Source of the DNA: Escherichia phage IK_ECO1
Sequence record: PP975109.1
Direction: 5' to 3' (one strand)
Length of the DNA: 43,567 nucleotides
Positions 6,340-39,010 of this stretch are shown here, one piece after another. Every line of letters begins with the position of its first letter. Position 1 is the first letter of the stretch. Below the pieces are notes generated by a model. The model was not told the DNA's origin. It saw nothing but the letters and a program-made list of their open reading frames with translations, and ran no database searches. Position numbers and translations under genes: made by a program.

Positions 6340-9300
6340 ATGGCTCAGTTTCTGAACCGAGAACCGAATCCACAGGAAAAGGATTCTGCTAAGGGCGCAA
6401 CACTTAAACCTGCGCCTACAAGCGTAGATTGGAATGACGCAGGAGATGATGGGCTGAATGCCCTACAGCGTTCATCTATACTGGCCCAGGCTAAAACCCC
6501 TGCGACGTCAGCAGGGGAGAGCTTTGCTGCTGGGGTTGGTAACAGCATTATAGCTGCAGCCATTAGAAAGGCCTCCTCCCCAACATTCGTCCCAGAGCAG
6601 GGGTTTGATGCTAAGAAACAACTAAGCACCGACTCCCGAGCTAAGCTCTACACCCCTAATCAGGAAGAGATTGATTACTTGCACGGGGCGGTGTCCCTGG
6701 ATGATTATAATTATCGCATTCAGGCTATGCTAGAACAGCGTGACCGTGACCGTCAGATGTCTGATAACACGGTAGCCGGGTTCACCGGTGCACTGGCTGG
6801 TGATGCTCCGTTTATACTGGCTCCGATGTCAGCGGCGGGTATCGCTGGTCGTGCTGGCTTAGCAGTGCGTACTGCTATCCGCGCAGCGGATGTAGGTACA
6901 GCTGTCTATGCACAAGATCAATTGGGACAGTCTGCGGCAGTCACTGCTCTGGTAGCAGGGGTAGCTGGACTAGACCAGCTCTGGGACATGTCTAAGGCTG
7001 CTAAAGTAGCAGCAAAGGCACGCACTGGGCGTGAGCCTATGTTTGACCCGGACGCGCCCACAACTCGTACAGCAAGGGATGCTAATGTTACAGGAGTAGG
7101 AGAAGGGGACACAATACTCACTAAGGTACTGGATGAACCTATCCAAGTTCGCCGGAATAACACTGCTGCTGTTAACATGAAAGCGCAGGACGTAGTCCGT
7201 TTCCTCAAGACCTCTGAACACTTATCTAAAGGTCAGAAGGCTATCCTGGACACCCTGGGTGATGCAGTACAGGATATTGATTTTAAACTGGTGGCTGGTT
7301 CTTCTAACCGTAGCCACTATGGATTTTCACCAGCATCAACCACTGATAGGGGTTTTGTATCTTTACGTGCCCCTAAGAAAGCTAACGGAAGTACCTGGAC
7401 TACTGCTAGGGACGCTCTGCGTGCTATGGATGCGGACACTAGCCGAGTAGCAGTGCACGAGCTGATTCACGCGGCCACCACCAGAGCCATCAAGCAGAAT
7501 CCTGAAATTGCGAGTAAGCTGGAAGAGGTGCGCGCTGCAATAGCATCAGATTCAACTCTTAGTGATAAATTCAAGTATTATGCAAGCGATGTGCACGAGA
7601 TGCTGGCTGGACTGGGAGACAGCCCTGAGTGGGTAGAGTACCTCTCTAGGACTAAATCCCCTACTGGTAAGAGTATGCTTCGCCAGATTGGTGAGTATAT
7701 CATGAATGCGCTTGGGGTCCGTACCAAGGGCTCCGCGCTGGAGGATGTTCTGGACGCGTACGAGGACGCTGTCAAGTGGACCGCAAAGGACTACGCAGAC
7801 CAAGCTCAGGGCTTCCGGAGTGAGTCCTTCCAGGACTTGGCGGATACATCGGTTAAGCATGAGGCCTTGAAAGCTCAGGCTATGATGGACACTGCTAAGC
7901 GTAAGCTCGCCACTATGTTCTCCTTGTATGATAACATCGCAGAAGGTAGTGAGGACCTAGCACGCTTATTAGTATCTGATGCTACTGCTGTAGGAGGTCG
8001 TAAGCCGTCTGTGGTGGACTTCAAGCGTAATCTTACGTTGGAGATGGACGCTAGTGCCAGTGTAGTTGAGGATGCTATACTAGGTGCCCTCAAGGCCAAA
8101 GGTGTAGGTTTCACGGACCGCTTCTTCCATCGTAGCAACTTCCGAGCAGCTCGCGCGGACTTAGAAGACCGCTTAGGCCGTTACCTGGACTCTGCATACA
8201 GTGCTGAGGTTAATGGGCGTCCTGTACCTCTGCCGGACTCCGACTTGGTTCCGCTCGTTGAGGCGTATCGCAACTCTGGTTGGGCTAGTAAGTGGCACGA
8301 CCACATGACCGCTGCCGGTTTAGTGGATGACGGTACTCTGGTTAAATCGGACTACTACTTCCCACGCCAGTATAGCTACGATAAGATGCGCCAAGGTATT
8401 GCAAATGGTCGCTCCCTGGATAATTATCGGGATCTGTTCCGTCAGGCATTACGTGACGTGTATCCATCTATGGAACCTGAGGTCGTTCAACGTGTTGCTA
8501 AGGAGATGGTTGATGGTATCTACAACGGACGCTCCTCGGCCTCTGGTCCTATGTGGAAGCAACTCATCAATGGTATGGGTAATGATGAAGTGGTTATGGC
8601 CATGCGTAATGCTGGCGTAGACGAGAGTGCAATCCAGAGTTTCTTGGCAGGTAATGTCCGAGAATCTGGCGCTACCTCGCCTGCTCGGAACCTGCGTCAA
8701 CGTACCCGCTTCAACATGGATAAAGAGTACATCGTGGATGGTCAGGCTATGCGTATGCAGGACCTGATGGACACTGACGTAGCCAAGGTAATGCACGGTT
8801 ACACCAACCGCATGTCTGGTCGTGTAGGTATGGCCTATGCTGGTGTCTCTGACCTCAAGACTCTAGAGACGATGATTAACGAGTCCAAACACGCCCTAGC
8901 CGATTCGGGTAAGTGGGAGAAGACTGTTAATGATACCATTGACTTTATCCTGGGTGGGGCCCCGGCCGATGCCGGGCAGATGCCGGACCTGTTGCGTGCA
9001 GCGGGGAATATGGCTAACGCTACCATGCTCAAGAACTCTGGATTGTACCAGCTTACTGACACCGCTCTGGCTCTGAAAGAGTTCGGTATGTCCCGAGTAC
9101 TCCGCAGTATGCGTGAGCAGCCCTGGTTTAAAGAGGGTGCCGTAGCTATTCGTAATCCGGACATGGCTAGTCGCCTGGATACAATCCTACGTGGCAGTAT
9201 CCAGAAGGAGATGCGCTTCCGCTGGCTGAATACCTACGCAGACGATAACTTGGACCTGACCCGTCAGGCTTCCTGGTTTAACGTCACGCAGAACGTTGGG

Positions 9301-15519: not shown

Positions 15520-17643
15520 ATGGCTCTCGTACGTAATATTACTGTCCCGAGTTATTACTCTGGACTTAACGTTGTTGACTACGGGGTAGTAGGCGACGGT
15601 ATCTCGGATGATACAGTAGCCTATACTCGAACTGTTGAAGCTGCTAATGCACTGCAACTGCCTGTATATGTACCTCCAGGTATGCGTGTCCGTATCACCG
15701 GTAGTTCTAACATTACACATAAGTACGGTTTTAACTTTAACGGCAGTACCTTGGATATTCAAGAGTATGCTGGTAAGTTCCTGTTCCAGCGCCAGGTAGC
15801 CCCTGTTCAATACTCTGCTGGTTCGCCACTTCTTACTGCTTTAGCAAGTACTACTTTAAGCGGAACTTATAACAGTGTTATGTCAGGCCGTACAGAACTG
15901 GATAACTGCTACGTAAATATAGTTACTAACCAGCCGTACTATACCTACCGTGGGGCTGTTACTACTCGTACTGAACGTTTAGCTGTAATCCGTAACGGTA
16001 TGCTTGAGGGCACTCTTAAATATCCGCTTGCAGGTTCTAGAATCACAGGCATCACTGCATACCCTCTTCCAGATAAGGAAGTAGTGTATGAGAACGTGGT
16101 GGTGGACGTAGGTGCTAATCAGCTGCAAGGTAACCCGTTCCTGATTGAGGCCGATAAGGTACGTTTAGAGAACTGGTCTTTTAAGCAATCTAACGTACTA
16201 TTTACCTCTGTAAATCCAGTATACGTAGTCATGCGTAACTGCTTCCATATGCGCGTACGCAACTTCCAGATGCAGTGGACTACTCGTACCGCTGCTAACA
16301 ACTTTACGTACGGCGTGGCTGCTGAGTACTGTTCAGATATCGAGTTTGACTCAATGAAAGGTGTAGGCGACGGTTGGGGCATGACCGGTTTCAACGAGAA
16401 TCGTCGCTGTACCTTCAGGAACTGTCAGCTTAGCCGAATAGATACGCACCAGCCTTTCATTGAATGGTTGCGTGTGCTGGACTGTGATACCGGTCAGTGG
16501 GGTATTAGTCTAACTGCCTTAGGTGATGTTATTGTTAAAGGTGGTAGCATTACCCTGACTAACGATAGCGTTTATACAGATAAGGTAGGCTTTATACTAT
16601 TGCGTAATGAGTGCGGCGGGGTACTGGATGGTCAGTTAGTAGTTGATGATGTTACCCTCAAGAACTACACCAGTACTACAACTCAAGCCTTAGTATATCA
16701 CCGTGGGGACTTAGCAGATGCCCCACCTTCAGGTTCCCCTGTTAACTTCCAATGCAGTAGCAGTATGCTCATCAAGAACCTGCGTTCAGATGGCCGCATC
16801 GTAGAGCTTGCCCCTACCATCAACGGTGCTTCAGGTATTAAGTACCCGGCCAGTATCGTAGTTCAGGACTGTATTGAAGGTATCTACAGCTTTGCTACTA
16901 ATATAAGTACCTTTACCCCGAACAGTACGATAACTACTCCAGTCGATAACGCCTTAGGTAGTATCTCGAATCTGAAGGTACAGTTACGTAGCTGCAATAT
17001 CCGCAGTAACGTCTCCCTGGTAGATACGTCCATCCCACAGAAATTTGTAGTGGATATGCTGCTTGATGGTGTATTCGGAAACGGTGCATTCAATCCGGGA
17101 CTACAGGTTAAGTTCGGAGGTACTGTCAGCTGTGTTAACTCTGTACTGGAAGGCTTGGACTTCTTCTCAGGGGCTGCACTGGACCGGTACTTGAAGGTGT
17201 CAGTAGTAGGTGGAGGTATTCGCCACACTGGACGTTTCCGTACTGTACCTGTGAACGGGGCTAATACCTTAGTCTCGGTTATTATCCAGGGAGCTGCATT
17301 GCAGAGCACTACGGCTGCTGCATTACGTTATTATATGGTGGCGCATCTGCAAGGTTGTACCTACAGCGTAGCCGGGTCTGCCAGTACCCCTACATTAACT
17401 GTCACCCCAGATGGTAGTACTAGTTACGATACTGGGGTAGTTGGTATTAACAGTAAGAACCTAATGCAACTTACAGCCAGTGTAAGTGGGGTACTTAGAA
17501 GGGTACCGTTCTTCCTGCCTGCTAGTGGTGGTAGTACTTACGTGCAGTTAGATAACGGTGTTTACGCTAACATAACCTACAGCGGAAGTACTGTAACTGT
17601 TTCTACCACAGCAGGTTTAGGCGGGATTACGTTGGTAGGCTGA
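15520..17643 (+). CDS. Tailspike / polysaccharide depolymerase, right-handed beta-helix (pectate-lyase-like), 707 aa
   Basis: N-terminal motif NVVDYGVVGDGISDDT typical of pectate lyase 3 / beta-helix tailspikes; last structural-type gene before the non-coding region; lacks T7 fiber anchor domain. Confidence 0.6.
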   Translation: MALVRNITVPSYYSGLNVVDYGVVGDGISDDTVAYTRTVEAANALQLPVYVPPGMRVRITGSSNITHKYGFNFNGSTLDIQEYAGKFLFQRQVAPVQYSAGSPLLTALASTTLSGTYNSVMSGRTELDNCYVNIVTNQPYYTYRGAVTTRTERLAVIRNGMLEGTLKYPLAGSRITGITAYPLPDKEVVYENVVVDVGANQLQGNPFLIEADKVRLENWSFKQSNVLFTSVNPVYVVMRNCFHMRVRNFQMQWTTRTAANNFTYGVAAEYCSDIEFDSMKGVGDGWGMTGFNENRRCTFRNCQLSRIDTHQPFIEWLRVLDCDTGQWGISLTALGDVIVKGGSITLTNDSVYTDKVGFILLRNECGGVLDGQLVVDDVTLKNYTSTTTQALVYHRGDLADAPPSGSPVNFQCSSSMLIKNLRSDGRIVELAPTINGASGIKYPASIVVQDCIEGIYSFATNISTFTPNSTITTPVDNALGSISNLKVQLRSCNIRSNVSLVDTSIPQKFVVDMLLDGVFGNGAFNPGLQVKFGGTVSCVNSVLEGLDFFSGAALDRYLKVSVVGGGIRHTGRFRTVPVNGANTLVSVIIQGAALQSTTAAALRYYMVAHLQGCTYSVAGSASTPTLTVTPDGSTSYDTGVVGINSKNLMQLTASVSGVLRRVPFFLPASGGSTYVQLDNGVYANITYSGSTVTVSTTAGLGGITLVG

Positions 17644-17662
17644 GGCATATCTGAGGCATATC
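17641..17662. repeat. Tandem 11-mer tgaggcatatc x2 beginning at the tailspike stop codon
   Basis: Seen directly in sequence. Confidence 0.8.
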
Positions 17663-17681
17663 TCAGGAAAGTGCATTAAGG

Positions 17682-17707
17682 TACATGGAAATCCTACATG
17701 GAAATCC
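17682..17707. repeat. Perfect tandem 13-mer tacatggaaatcc x2
   Basis: Seen directly in sequence. Confidence 0.85.
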
Positions 17708-17819
17708 CAGACTGAGCGCATGTAAACGTGCAGTTCATTTTTATTATACTTATGCGAGGACCTCCCTCACCCTCAACGCGCCCCAGTGCCCCCATAGGGG
17801 GTGCCCAGTGGAAATTAGA

Positions 17820-17830
17820 GGGGGGGGGGG
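17820..17830. repeat. G11 homopolymer flanked by palindromes (cccccataggggg; gcaggccaactagtgggcctgc)
   Basis: Seen directly in sequence. Confidence 0.8.
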
Positions 17831-17857
17831 TGGACGTTTAGACGTCTAGCAGGCCAA

Positions 17858-18280
17858 CTAGTGGGCCTGCTAGTGCGCTCTAGGGAGCCGTAGAAGCTCC
17901 CTGCGTGCCTTAGTGGGTATTGCTAGTGCTATCCTATGCTTATCGCTGTGTGCCTCTTGTAGAAGCTCTGGGAAGCTCTGGGAGGCACTGGGCTATCCCT
18001 TGCTATCCCTGCGTATTCACTGGGTGCGCTCTGGGCTATCCCTGCGTGCTCTCTGTGGGGCGTAGGGGGTGCGCTCTGCCTTGCTTATTTTGTGCCTGTA
18101 TTGTGCGCCTAGTGGGCCAGCTAGTGCGCTGTGGTGCTATCCCTAGTGCGTACTAGGCTATCCACTGGCTATCCTTAGTGCTTTACATTGTGCCGATTCT
18201 GTGCTACGCTGCGCGCTCCCCACTAGGGCGCACATCCACTACCCACCACACACCGCCACCTAGTGCTATCTCTTCACCCT
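17858..18280. repeat. Dense family of short direct repeats (ctagtg(c/g), gctatcc(c)t, gaagctctggg x2, ctgggctatccctgcgt x2) in non-coding DNA; probable genome-terminus / packaging or replication-associated region
   Basis: Repeats read by eye; no credible ORF; resembles short-repeat arrays near T7-type genome ends. Confidence 0.5.
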
Positions 18281-18309
18281 TACTTTCATTCGAAAGCTAA
18301 TAAGAAATG

Positions 18310-18327
18310 ATGTTACAGGAGTAGGAG
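18310..18327 (+). promoter_or_regulatory. Copy of repeated motif atgttacaggagtaggag in non-coding region; candidate phage RNAP promoter
   Basis: Exact identity with copies at 7085 and 38994. Confidence 0.4.
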
Positions 18328-18781
18328 GGTTTTAGGGCACTACATACACACTACCTACTACTACTCACTAGTATCCCCTAGTAATGCCCTATATTACGAC
18401 CGTAGGGAGTAAGCATTACCTACACAGTCACCGCATCACTACGTGCCCTTTCACTTCGTACGGGCACTACGTTCTGCTTATGTAGTGTTAGATGGTATTA
18501 GTTAGCATTGGCTAGTATTGGTTACAGCCATTGGCTGCATAGTGCTATCTCTAGAGCTATCACTAGAATAGAAGCATTGGCTAAGTGTTTGCCCTGCTTA
18601 CTCTTTTTGCTCTTAAGGATAAATAGTTGCAAAAAGTATCAAATAGTACTTGCTTCTTTTGGTTTATTGGCGCTATAGTTCAATCACCGGGAGGCACTGA
18701 GGCGCTGAACGGGGTAGAGTCGGGAGACTCCACCGGATTAAAGCTAGATGGTGTGAAGGGTTAGATACTCGATAAAAAGAG

Positions 18782-18810
18782 TTGACACCGCGAAGAACAT
18801 AAGCTAGATT
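18782..18810 (+). promoter_or_regulatory. Candidate host sigma70 early promoter: TTGACA - 17 nt - TAGATT
   Basis: Perfect -35 hexamer, 17-nt spacer, -10 with TAnnnT; upstream of early genes on the coding strand. Confidence 0.45.
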
Positions 18811-19010
18811 GAATCCCGAAGTAAGTAGTAAGGGTCGCTACCGGCTCCCACGGTAGCAGTTCGGGAAGGTACTACAACCTAACAAGGGCTTGACTAGCCC
18901 GCTAGTGTACCGCTGAGGCGGAGTAATACAGGACGCAAAGTGTCGCCCGCTGAGGGGCTACAGCTCACGGGGGAGGTTAACAGGCTCCCGATTTAGTAAG
19001 AAATAAACGC

Positions 19011-19039
19011 TTGACAAGTTCCGCTTACCTGAGTAACTT
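19011..19039 (+). promoter_or_regulatory. Candidate host sigma70 early promoter: TTGACA - 17 nt - TAACTT
   Basis: Perfect -35 hexamer, 17-nt spacer, weaker -10; further TTGACT/TTGACG hexamers at 18890, 19092, 19104 lack good -10 elements. Confidence 0.35.
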
Positions 19040-19070
19040 AGATAGTGAACAACGTAGTAAGCTGGTTTGC

Positions 19071-19082
19071 GGGGGGGGGGGG
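19071..19082. repeat. G12 homopolymer in the early leader
   Basis: Seen directly in sequence. Confidence 0.8.
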
Positions 19083-19431
19083 CCCAGTACCTTGACTGGT
19101 ACGTTGACGACCCATCCCCTAGACAATCAGTAGTAGTGAAGATGTAACGTCAAGAGCTGAGACGACAAACGGCTGGGGCGCTGAGGCGCTGCCCCTTAAA
19201 AGAATAGCGCCGAGAGGTTGAGTCCCTTCCACGGTTGTGCAGTGGGTCGTACTCACAGGTTGGCAGTCCTGAGCCGATAAGTGCATAGGCAGTCGCTCCC
19301 GTATCCAGTGAGCGCGGCAAATACTGCTGGTATCCTAGCAACCACTGGGCTAGGGGTGTTTGAGTTGGGTTTTAGGCGGGCAAATACATTCCGCCAGAAC
19401 TCAACCCATCAAACACTGAGAGGAGTACACA

Positions 19432-19647
19432 ATGAAATATCGTGATAAGTTAGCGCAACAATTCGCGGGGTTGGGGAAGCTATCTGGCGCTGAGTTGAGG
19501 AAGCGTCGGGATGCACTAAATCGTGCTGGGTATATGCGGGTGAAGCAATCTGCGACGTTCAGTACGAATGTACGCGGTAAGACCAAAACAAAGGGCAGTA
19601 GCAAGGCCCCGCAAGGCTGGTATACTGCTGGGCAGTTCGGACGCTAA
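19432..19647 (+). CDS. Early hypothetical protein, 71 aa, basic
   Basis: RBS gaggag 7 nt upstream of ATG; first ORF after the promoter region. Confidence 0.5.
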   Translation: MKYRDKLAQQFAGLGKLSGAELRKRRDALNRAGYMRVKQSATFSTNVRGKTKTKGSSKAPQGWYTAGQFGR

Positions 19648-19676
19648 TTACAGCCTATAGCATCCTGTGGGGTGCT
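19642..19676 (+). promoter_or_regulatory. Conserved stem-loop element, copy 1 (agcctatagcatcctgtggggtgctatgtgaagta)
   Basis: One of three related intergenic elements; stem tagcatcc / gggtgcta. Confidence 0.4.
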
Positions 19677-19725
19677 ATGTGAAGTAATTCGTTAGGTAAA
19701 CAATCAACAATCGATGAGGTGTATC

Positions 19726-20310
19726 ATGACTAAAGCAACCAATGCAACCGCTAAAGTATTCAAGTTAACTGCTGCGGGTAGCATCCGCAAAGCGCTGGGC
19801 GATGTAGTGGAAGCAAAGCGTAATATTACTATCAGTGCTCTGTTCCACGGTCTGATTAGTAGCAACGTTTCATGGGCTACGGATATGCAGCGTAGTGATG
19901 CCGCTGATTTCGATATGGTGCTGCGTACTTTGTTACCTATCAAGTTCAACAAAGAGTCGGGCAAGTACGAGTTCCACGCCAAAAAGTGTTATACATCGGC
20001 TGAGAAGCTGGGTATTGAGCTGGATAGTGTGCGTCTGGATTATAAACAAGCTGACAAGCAAGGCCGCGAAGAGATTGTTGCCAGCTTCTACAGCGCCTGT
20101 ATGGCCCTGTACGCTGCAGAAGCAGAACAAGTGAAGAATGATGCCCTTGATGCCGACGCAATGCGTCTACAAGCTCTGGGGCGCGTTAAAAATGCCATTA
20201 AGAAGGCAAAAGAGACTGGCGTAAGCGATTCAGATTTAGTAAGCATGCTTATCAGTCAAGGCGTTGATGTACGCGCTGTTCTGGATGCAACGCTGAAGGT
20301 GCCAGCATGA
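19726..20310 (+). CDS. Early hypothetical protein, 194 aa
   Basis: ATG 19726 with RBS gaggtg; track ORF starts 12 nt earlier at 19714. Confidence 0.5.
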   Translation: MTKATNATAKVFKLTAAGSIRKALGDVVEAKRNITISALFHGLISSNVSWATDMQRSDAADFDMVLRTLLPIKFNKESGKYEFHAKKCYTSAEKLGIELDSVRLDYKQADKQGREEIVASFYSACMALYAAEAEQVKNDALDADAMRLQALGRVKNAIKKAKETGVSDSDLVSMLISQGVDVRAVLDATLKVPA

Positions 20311-20439
20311 TTTATAAGGTTCCGGTTATCAAGTGGTGGGCGCTGTGCCCTGCGGCCAACGATGCGGACGCCTTCAACATCCCCACCCGTGGCCGTCACA
20401 ACAAGTGGCGGTATGAGGGATTAGGGGAATACGTATAGT
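20308..20439 (+). CDS. Small hypothetical protein, 43 aa (MIYKVPVIKWWALCPAANDA…)
   Basis: ATGA overlap with upstream stop; below ORF-track threshold; coding status uncertain. Confidence 0.25.
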
Positions 20440-20443
20440 GGCA

Positions 20444-20478
20444 AGCCTATAGCGTCCTACGGGGCGCTATGTGAATAC
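20444..20478 (+). promoter_or_regulatory. Conserved stem-loop element, copy 2 (agcctatagcgtcctacggggcgctatgtgaatac)
   Basis: Stem tagcgtcc / gggcgcta; differs from copy 1 by paired compensatory changes. Confidence 0.4.
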
Positions 20479-20498
20479 CGCTAACAATGAGGTTTCAA

Positions 20499-20720
20499 AT
20501 GAAAGCAAAGTTAATCTATCCGAGGCACGTGCTTTGGCCCTTGTGGCGCAACCAAGTGCACCCAGAGTACAACTACACTGTGATGATCTTCTCTGACCGG
20601 GACATCAATCAGGAATCCCCTTTAGACCTTGTTGATACTCATACCGAAATGGCGGCGCGCACTCTGCTGGACGCCGTGAATCTAGGTGTTATTACCGACT
20701 GGAGGCAACTTTATGCTTAG
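20499..20720 (+). CDS. Early hypothetical protein, 73 aa
   Basis: ATG 20499 with RBS tgaggt; track ORF begins at 20487. Confidence 0.45.
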   Translation: MKAKLIYPRHVLWPLWRNQVHPEYNYTVMIFSDRDINQESPLDLVDTHTEMAARTLLDAVNLGVITDWRQLYA

Positions 20721-38993: not shown

Positions 38994-39010
38994 ATGTTAC
39001 AGGAGTAGGA
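38994..39010 (+). promoter_or_regulatory. Copy of repeated motif atgttacaggagtagga directly downstream of the RNAP gene, abutting the ATG of the next gene; candidate phage RNAP promoter
   Basis: Exact identity with copies at 7085 and 18310; position analogous to T7 promoters just downstream of gene 1. Confidence 0.4.

Follow-up and report, generated by a model that had tools for sequence, protein, structure and literature searches.

The closest described counterparts of the region analysed here, the early leader of Escherichia phage IK_ECO1 (sequence record PP975109.1), are the left ends of phages T7 and T3, which hold a terminal repeat, a phage RNA polymerase (RNAP) promoter, tandem sigma70 promoters, a structured leader, a long hairpin and the first gene. 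For T7, promoter activity and RNase III cleavage are established. The stretch under study, called the window throughout, comprises 43,567 nucleotides (nt) and is the circularly permuted 43.6-kb genome of a KP34-like podophage (Drulisvirus, Slopekvirinae, Autographiviridae). Its left end presents the same elements, in the order terminal repeat, phage promoter at 18308, three sigma70-type promoters or candidates that we call P0, P1 and P2, a structured leader of about 390 nt, a long hairpin and gene 1. This layout parallels phiOL, A1-A3, R0.3 and gene 0.3 of T7 and T3, with the promoter at 18308 placed like phiOL. Between P1 and P2 lies a covariation-supported and apparently undescribed RNA element of 166 nt, which we refer to as the early-leader element (ELE).

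T7 A2 and P1 of the window have GAAG(T)AACAT in common in the spacer, and T3-like phages have demonstrably exchanged leader segments with Drulisvirus. The leader of the window is longer than that of T7, at 386-746 nt versus about 175-430 nt. It also differs from the T3 leader, which contains a boxA, in that no boxA (consensus (T/C)GCTCTTTAACAA, up to three mismatches) was found in 16779-20180, an interval that covers the whole leader.

In position, ELE further resembles the HK022 put, lambda nut and rrn boxA-boxB RNAs, which are structured RNAs located just after early promoters and acting on their own polymerase. The put RNA of HK022 consists of two adjacent stem-loops just after the early promoter and makes RNAP terminator-resistant in cis. 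Judged against this general description of put, ELE has a fitting position in five clades and a different fold, and in several phages it adjoins a boxA-like sequence, as antitermination leaders do. Unlike these leaders, ELE has six helices and two pseudoknots, is accessory, is often bypassed by transcripts and shows no dependence between its presence and that of boxA. Another comparison is provided by the candidate non-coding RNAs (ncRNAs) derived from 5' untranslated regions of virulent phages by ONT-cappable-seq (Putzeys et al. 2024, PMC10914365), which, like ELE, are short, structured, promoter-proximal leader RNAs of early or middle transcription units that are conserved among relatives. 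Those candidates, however, owe their definition to premature termination, and their conservation stays within one genus, whereas ELE has no terminator, was delimited by covariation and crosses subfamilies.

The promoters and the element between them are placed as follows.

18650..18679, + strand: P0, candidate third sigma70 promoter, TTGCTT-18-TATAGT, with an A-rich stretch upstream
18782..18810, + strand: P1, sigma70-type early promoter, TTGACA-17-TAGATT (-35 at 18782-18787, -10 at 18805-18810)
18827..18992, + strand: ELE, accessory structured leader RNA of 166 nt, between P1 and P2
19011..19039, + strand: P2, sigma70-type early promoter, TTGACA-17-TAACTT (-35 at 19011-19016, -10 at 19034-19039)

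A preliminary description, made from the sequence alone, had proposed P1 and P2 as promoter-like sites with 17-nt spacers resembling the clustered A1-A3 promoters of T7. Both sites are present as described, and the resemblance extends to their setting, as they point rightward near the left end, lie downstream of a phiOL-like promoter, are conserved and had previously been predicted and annotated. Both appear among the predicted sigma70 host promoters of "Kp34likevirus" in Table 3 of Eriksson 2015 (PMC4411677), and the GenBank record of KpV475 annotates promoters at 969-997 (P1) and 1038-1066 (P2). P1 is identical to the sequence listed in that table, TTGACACCGCGAAGAACATAAGCTAGATT, while P2 shares hexamers and spacing with the listed TTGACAAGTTCTGATTCACTGAGTAACTT and shows substitutions in the spacer. 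The host-promoter predictions of that paper concern genomes without ELE, where 68 nt separate P1 from P2, and its passages on host promoters mention neither P0 nor an inserted RNA element. P1 and P2 are already known for the genus, as predictions, and for this reason the promoters themselves add little here.

Conservation was assessed in 31 related loci. P1 is kept in 27 of them (at most three substitutions in a 38-nt query); the four loci without it comprise one that is cut short and three that form a divergent lineage. P2 occurs in 20 of the 31, variants (TTGACA-17-TAACTT, TTGACG-17-TAAATT) occur in two more, and it is missing from JKT5. P0 is present in 27 related loci and three divergent ones; among Drulisvirus relatives its hexamers and the A-rich upstream stretch are conserved and the middle of the spacer varies freely. 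TTGCTT-18-TATAGT/TATATT is retained in the divergent lineage, represented by the IMG/VR contigs L012, L013 and L024, where the downstream leader is unrelated. About 150-200 nt upstream of the conserved hairpin, the leader of these three contigs contains AAGTCATACGAAAAACAGGTATTGACAAC, which nearly matches the T3 A2 promoter region, and after it TTGACA-17-TATAGT. From this T3-A2-like stretch, early promoter regions appear to be mosaic across subfamilies. P1 and P2 are very probably the early promoters that this phage offers to host RNAP, in an arrangement like that of T7 A1-A3.

The proposed structure of ELE consists of the following helices (A to F) and pseudoknots (PK1 and PK2).

18832-18835 with 18844-18847, + strand: PK1
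18837-18843 / 18851-18857, + strand: helix A
18867-18870 / 18877-18880, + strand: helix B
18886-18889 / 18897-18900, + strand: helix C, loop UUGACUA
18907-18913 / 18918-18929, + strand: helix D, whose apex is the second copy of the gctgaggcg motif discussed below
18942-18948 / 18955-18961, + strand: helix E, whose loop is the third copy of that motif
18951-18954 with 18964-18967, + strand: PK2, UGAG with CUCA
18971-18978 / 18982-18989, + strand: helix F

Nineteen distinct ELE copies were aligned with MAFFT independently of structure (alignment A2). The RNAalifold consensus on this alignment contains 39 pairs, 20 of which show compensatory double changes, and the final model of six helices and two H-type pseudoknots contains 44 pairs, 23 of them with compensatory changes. 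Under this model 99.2% of ELE cells are paired, compared with 34-48% when the partners are slid by one to three columns, and the covariation score is 0.468, a value reached by none of 500 shuffles, compared with 0.04-0.09 in the slid controls. PK2 is compensated in two independent events, UGCG/CGCA in Klebsiella phage 6937 (Kp6937) and UAAG/CUUA in P1723. In PK1, the pair 6:22, formed by the nucleotide before GGUCG and the fourth nucleotide of the helix A loop, covaries perfectly (GC in 12 sequences, AU in four and CG in three). A long-range helix proposed by RNAalifold (columns 7-9 with 145-147) was rejected because the substitutions in Kp6937 and P1723 break it and yet compensate within PK2. 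By count from the pairing table, 87 of the 835 paired cells are G.U; as these would be A.C mismatches on the complementary strand, the folded molecule is the + strand transcript. A search of covarying columns for further tertiary contacts gave mostly single-sequence artefacts. We would also like to note that in PSK8 a G:C to A:U change in loop C coincides with a change of GUCG to GUUG, a single event from which we claim no contact.

No known RNA family or reading frame accounts for ELE in the searches made. Rfam 15 gave no match at E<=1 in 17500-19800 and chance-level matches at E<=10 for ELE from the window and four other phages, ARAGORN found no tRNA or tmRNA in 17600-19700, and no open reading frame (ORF) of at least 30 amino acids (aa) overlaps ELE on either strand. 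A 19-codon GTG frame within ELE, read by eye, was discarded as not conserved, the GTG being lost in other copies. AttikonH5 (L002; 725-892 on the + strand and 1105-1242 on the - strand) and other records carry ORFs annotated as "hypothetical protein" across the leader, one of them overlapping ELE. These are probably false gene calls, given the covariation at the RNA level and the lack of conserved frames. No description of ELE was found in the literature by sequence string or keywords, a search that left most subscription journals outside, so that an earlier account may exist.

Among 50,697 phage records, ELE occurs in 70, at 73-99% identity, and all 70 are Autographiviridae of Enterobacterales. 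The carriers include phiYeO3-12 (Teetrevirus), JSS2 and ETEP21B (Berlinvirus), PRF-SP4, TM1 and CHX131 (Kayfunavirus), cp13, K5-2 and PEA128 (Przondovirus), P1723 (Foetvirus), Klebsiella phage 6937 (Melnykvirinae) and an Erwinia phage, among others, and the element is shared by a minority of Drulisviruses. In the other subfamilies and genera of Autographiviridae, blastn matches are limited to the ELE insert (query positions 221-387). ELE always has sense orientation in the untranslated early leader, ahead of the first genes (SAM hydrolase, Ocr or small ORFs). A covariance model found exactly one copy per carrier, with 192 bits for that of the window, and no extra or divergent copy in the window; with filters off, it found none in ELE-less Drulisviruses, in the inserts of the related leaders L008 and L004 or in the first 1.5 kb of T7 and T3. 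Two degenerate patterns left ELE unmatched in 185,579 bacterial and archaeal GTDB species genomes, and it was likewise unmatched in 5,426 complete E. coli genomes and 72,556 plasmids. A host or plasmid origin was set aside, as no copy turned up in any of these three collections.

The distribution within the phages is that of an exchanged piece. The ELE of the window and that of Klebsiella phage AttikonH5 share 98.8% identity, while Escherichia phage Minorna, the nearest whole genome to the window at about 89.5% identity, has a different insert in the slot between P1 and P2. phiYeO3-12 has ELE and T3 does not, the flanking leader being otherwise collinear. Its sequence distribution shows ELE to be an accessory module exchanged between different Autographiviridae subfamilies. 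The slot itself looks like a hotspot for accessory leader RNAs: the distance from P1 to P2 among relatives ranges from 68 to 345 nt, and unrelated structured inserts lie between the equivalents of P1 and P2 in Minorna (L014), L019, L008 and L004. One of these, "cassette B" (about 82 nt; Minorna and phiKT), has a hairpin that covaries (CUGAUA/UAUCAG versus CCGGUG/CACCGG) and occurs in just four phage records.

The sequences around ELE suggest how it may have moved. In P1723, ELE is flanked by two near-identical TTGACA-17-TAACTT promoters, each followed by AGATAGCAAG, and a -10 with initial transcribed sequence, GTAACTTAGATAGC, is common to P2 of the window and both of these promoters. In phiYeO3-12, JSS2 and ETEP21B, a TTGACA-17-TAAGAT promoter that corresponds in position to T3 A3 has its -35 in the loop of helix F, and in Kayfunavirus a TTGACA-18-TAGTAT promoter lies within about 10 nt after ELE. 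We note that the TTGACA-17-TAAGAT promoter of phiYeO3-12 (812-846; ETEP21B equivalent 875-904) is unannotated in its record, and that the annotated "A3" (628-656) is an extra promoter driving ELE. In the window, (T)AGTAAG has four + strand copies in 240 nt (18820, 18827, 18995 and 19056), one directly downstream of P1, one at each edge of ELE and one past P2, with a genome-wide count at chance. ELE-less relatives have three (T)AGTAAG in tandem, and the repeats that bound ELE in the window adjoin there. These repeats may have served as recombination joints, or they may reflect a common initial transcribed sequence. The simplest explanation would be that ELE spread via recombination within similar early promoters during co-infection.

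Taken as a statement about anatomy, and not about what ELE does, we consider it likely that this region combines an array of host-RNAP promoters with a mobile structured RNA, the repeated gctgaggcg motif being parts of hairpins. Several observations weigh against this view. In a consensus scan of 17500-20500, one promoter-like site was found (P1, score 10/12 with a 17-nt spacer), against 3.3 +/- 1.6 in shuffled sequence, and TTGACA occurs 16 times in the window where 19.5 are expected. P2, with a -35 of 6/6 and a 17-nt spacer, has a -10, TAACTT, that matches in just three of six positions (A2 and T6 kept), which puts it below the -10 threshold of the scan; P0, with TTGCTT at 3/6, TATAGT at 5/6 and an 18-nt spacer, also falls under the scan threshold. 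The scan recovered P1, missed P2 and was uninformative by itself. Consensus alone leaves P1 and P2 at chance level, and conservation raises them above it. Promoter use in Drulisvirus is presumed from sequence. As for ELE, most relatives are without it, so it is not essential to early transcription. The 19 sequences amount to about eight clades, and independent compensatory events are therefore fewer than the cell counts suggest; PK2 rests on two events and PK1 on one variable pair with three pair types. The minimum free energy (MFE) fold of the window ELE alone is no stabler than shuffled sequence (z = -0.34). The element has no terminator or defined 3' end, GAUUUAG following helix F.

As to function, we propose the following course of events. 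Host sigma70 RNAP would start at P0, P1 and P2 as the DNA end enters the cell. Since ELE lies between P1 and P2, it would form the 5' part of P1 transcripts and be skipped by P2 transcripts; transcripts from P0 would likewise carry it near their 5' end. ELE, presumably functioning as RNA, would then be made within the first transcripts and, in the mechanism that we prefer, bind a conserved enterobacterial component. Its partner would most likely be a conserved host component because the carriers share little else in their early regions and all infect Enterobacterales. A trans-acting decoy or inhibitor is a role to which we lean tentatively, short of even confidence; it is favoured by the promoter-ELE-promoter layout, the accessory and horizontal distribution and the downstream hairpins of processing type. 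Such an RNA could, for example, target defence (a sensor or an effector), a ribonuclease, RNAP or an RNA chaperone. If this were true, the P1-P2 interval would do at the RNA level what accessory slots for anti-defence genes do in early regions. The proposal in its full form, namely a new mobile double-pseudoknot phage ncRNA that is made from the strongest early promoters before any protein and acts in trans on a conserved enterobacterial target to protect or accelerate infection, is somewhat unlikely.

An explanation that we regard as possible, although doubtful, is that ELE is a cis-acting domain of the leader, which either makes host RNAP from P1 or P0 resistant to Rho or terminators, in the manner of put, or shields the 5' end from decay, and would thereby secure transcription-driven genome entry and early gene expression. 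An untranslated leader of 400-750 nt is a natural target of Rho, and ELE, which has no terminator of its own, is always in sense orientation and lies 7-45 nt after a sigma70-type -10 in five clades; for the Kayfunavirus copies, however, there is no such proximal promoter. The second promoter that usually comes right after ELE (P2 in the window, and its counterparts in P1723, phiYeO3-12 and Berlinvirus, and Kayfunavirus) is harder to reconcile with a cis role, because many early transcripts would bypass the element. A boxA-like CGCTCTTTAACAA about 10-25 nt after ELE in Przondovirus, Kp6937, PSK8 and PRF-SP4 is what an antitermination leader might show, but the same boxA occurs in T3, which has no ELE, and is not in the leader of the window; a link between ELE and boxA was dropped on account of T3. 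Close relatives do without ELE, which marks it as dispensable, and its six helices and two pseudoknots are unlike the two-hairpin put RNA as generally described. Beside the trans-acting decoy or inhibitor and this cis-acting modifier, what likelihood remains falls to some other function.

The preliminary description had further reported that (c)gctgagg(c)g recurs four times between the promoters and the first gene, with more TTGAC hexamers nearby. All four copies are present, as ACTGAGGCG at 18696, GCTGAGGCG at 18912 and 19180 and GCTGAGGGG at 18949, and so are TTGAC hexamers at 18890, 19092 and 19104. The hexamers at 18890 and 19092 are, however, hairpin loops and not -35 boxes, the former being the loop of ELE helix C. 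Besides ELE, the hairpins concerned are these.

18693..18706, + strand: hairpin of motif copy 1, GCAC-UGAG-GCGC, with an A.C mismatch in the window
19087..19102, + strand: hairpin GUACC-UUGACU-GGUAC, whose loop is the TTGAC at 19092; two compensatory pairs among 22 variants
19175..19195, + strand: GC-rich hairpin GGGGCGC-UGAG-GCGC(U)GCCCC, nearly invariant, with motif copy 4 at its apex

A repeated cis signal, whether a binding site of one factor or a series of RNase processing sites from the promoters to gene 1, is an improbable account of the motif. Four + strand copies do lie within 490 nt, and the local cluster of CTGAGG (four in 500 nt on the + strand) has a P of about 0.02 under random placement in a post hoc test, but genome-wide the counts are at chance, with GCTGAGG found nine times in the window against 8.45 expected and GCTGAGGCG behaving likewise. 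Three copies share a GC stem and a UGAG loop, yet the four are not kept as a set, relatives having from one to four. The hairpin of copy 1, located some 8-20 nt after the start predicted for P0, has a variable pair in relatives (G-C, G.U or A-U) and is swapped in nine of 26 variants for an unrelated hairpin in the same place, CUAGC-GACUA-GCUAG. Copy 2 is the apex of helix D, CCGC-UGAG-GCGG, where the stem covaries (CCGC/GCGG, CCAC/GUGG, CCCA/UGGG) and the loop varies among ELE copies (UGAG, CGUG, CGAG, UUAG). Copy 3 is the nearly invariant hexaloop of helix E, a different structural context, in which UGAG pairs with the downstream CUCA to form PK2. Copy 4 does speak for a signal in being identical in all related leaders compared except L006, which has one change. 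The motif thus occurs in four structural contexts (an apex, an apex with a variable loop, a pseudoknot loop and an apex), which is not what a recurring signal would look like. Copies 2 and 3 are, moreover, no part of the core leader; they are confined to genomes with the accessory insert and sit in a horizontally exchanged structured-RNA cassette. We conclude that gctgaggcg is no signal in itself: it corresponds to the UGAG loop and 3' stem of hairpins that are short and GC-rich, except in one case, where it is a loop that forms a pseudoknot. The accompanying suggestion of regulatory RNA signals in the long leader was, on the other hand, borne out.

Two further explanations of ELE are both very improbable. 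One holds that the insert acts as DNA, in the form of extra -35-like boxes, a protein-binding array, or an origin or packaging signal, with incidental hairpins; the loops of helices C and F do read TTGACT and TTAACA/TTGACA, the helix F loop does serve as a -35 (TTGACA-17-TAAGAT) in phiYeO3-12, JSS2 and ETEP21B, and ELE does lie within a promoter array near the genome end. Such a role is contradicted by the covariation, with compensatory changes in 23 of 44 pairs and 99.2% of cells paired versus about 40% in register-shifted controls; about 10% of the paired cells are G.U, which is tolerated on the + strand alone, and the TTGAC and TTAACA boxes of the window have no usable -10 at 16-18 nt. The other, a ligand-sensing riboswitch for the first early genes (SAM hydrolase or Ocr in T3/T7-like carriers), would suit the compact multi-helix pseudoknotted fold, its many invariant unpaired nucleotides and its position upstream of SAMase genes in several phages, but is unlikely for want of an expression platform, as no terminator follows helix F and 78-440 nt of variable sequence, often with another promoter, precede the first start codon, and in addition the downstream genes differ (SAMase, Ocr, small unknown proteins) and no Rfam riboswitch matches.

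Other structures of the leader, outside ELE and the motif copies, are listed here.

18711..18734, + strand: hairpin capped by a GGGA (GNRA) tetraloop, conserved and supported by covariation, between P0 and P1
19148..19164, + strand: hairpin CGUC-AAGAGCUGA-GACG, with a G-C to A-U compensatory change in six variants
19355..19417, + strand: long imperfect hairpin abutting the ribosome-binding site of gene 1, present in MFE and centroid folds

The GNRA hairpin shows two compensatory pairs (UA<->CG) among 26 variants, and this covariation at the RNA level upstream of P1 implies transcription coming in from P0 or the phage promoter. The most conserved part of the leader is the core at 19140-19215, AAGATGTAACGTCAAGAGCTGAGACGACAAACGGCTGGGGCGCTGAGGCGCTGCCCC, which is kept even where the promoters differ. 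Within it, the exact 21-mer of the hairpin at 19175-19195 was found in 22 IMG/VR contigs, including lineages with different promoters. The 3' strand of this hairpin can alternatively pair with AGCGCC at 19206-19211, and a double change in L006 fits this pairing, so the core may switch between the hairpin and the GGCGCU/AGCGCC pairing. The hairpin is followed by CUUAAAAG with no U-tract and is for this reason not an intrinsic terminator; a scan found no intrinsic terminator anywhere between 18080 and 20500. The long hairpin at 19355-19417 has three compensatory pairs in just three comparable sequences. It has the features of an R0.3-type hairpin, being imperfect, of about 20 bp or more and just upstream of the first gene, and is a candidate RNase III-type processing site like R0.3 of T7 and T3.

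Two irregularities of the leader deserve mention. At 19071-19082 the window has a run of 12 G, where GGGGAGG stands in all 21 related leader variants, 5 nt less and interrupted by an A; the run is either a homopolymer error of sequencing or assembly or genuine, in which case it would be a slippage tract within a small GGG...CCC hairpin. At 18608-18616, TGCTCTTAA resembles the core of lambda nut boxA, a likeness that is probably fortuitous because the site precedes P0 and relatives do not conserve its TTAA part.

The wider setting of the leader includes these features.

18308..18323, + strand: KP34-type phage RNAP strong promoter TGATGTTACAGGAGTA, an exact match to the validated KP34 promoter
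19418-19425, + strand: ribosome-binding site of the first gene, GAGAGGAG
19432..19647, + strand: first early gene, 71 aa, from the ORF list, with homologues annotated as the first coding sequence in relatives

The non-coding interval 17644-19431 matches the left ends of 319 phage records, and the physical left end lies at about 17765 of the window, where alignments begin for records deposited from the physical end. The promoters are thus about 0.9-1.25 kb from this end, P1 and P2 at about 1.0-1.25 kb, on the + strand, directed rightward and upstream of gene 1. By analogy with T7, the genome end near the promoter array would be the first to enter the cell. The strong promoter of KP34 RNAP was validated in vitro at KP34 nt 475-490 (PMC6834552). 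Its core, ATGTTACAGGAGTA, has three exact copies in the window (7085-7098, 18310-18323 and 38994-39007), in agreement with the three reported KP34 positions, at the left end, behind the RNAP gene and in the late region. A 32-nt hairpin motif, AGCCTATAGC.TCCT..GGGG.GCTATGTGAA, was also observed in two copies, at 19652-19683 and 20444-20475, each after an early ORF. The motif was put forward as a phage promoter by Eriksson et al. and was not used by KP34 RNAP in vitro according to Lu et al.; the copies at 19652 and 20444 may be processing or termination hairpins.

ELE is found in the DNA that is probably transcribed first in phages of at least seven genera or subfamilies of Autographiviridae, among them the well-studied phiYeO3-12. 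Its carriers infect Klebsiella, E. coli, Salmonella, Yersinia and Erwinia, and the element moves as a cassette between otherwise unrelated genomes. Because natural relatives with and without ELE exist, its effect is directly testable. More than mere spacers, the untranslated leaders of the early regions in these phages have a mosaic make-up, are structured and are subject to selection. If ELE does act on the host, it would be a tool of early takeover or counter-defence at the RNA level in the T7 supergroup, which includes many of the Klebsiella and E. coli phages under development for therapy.

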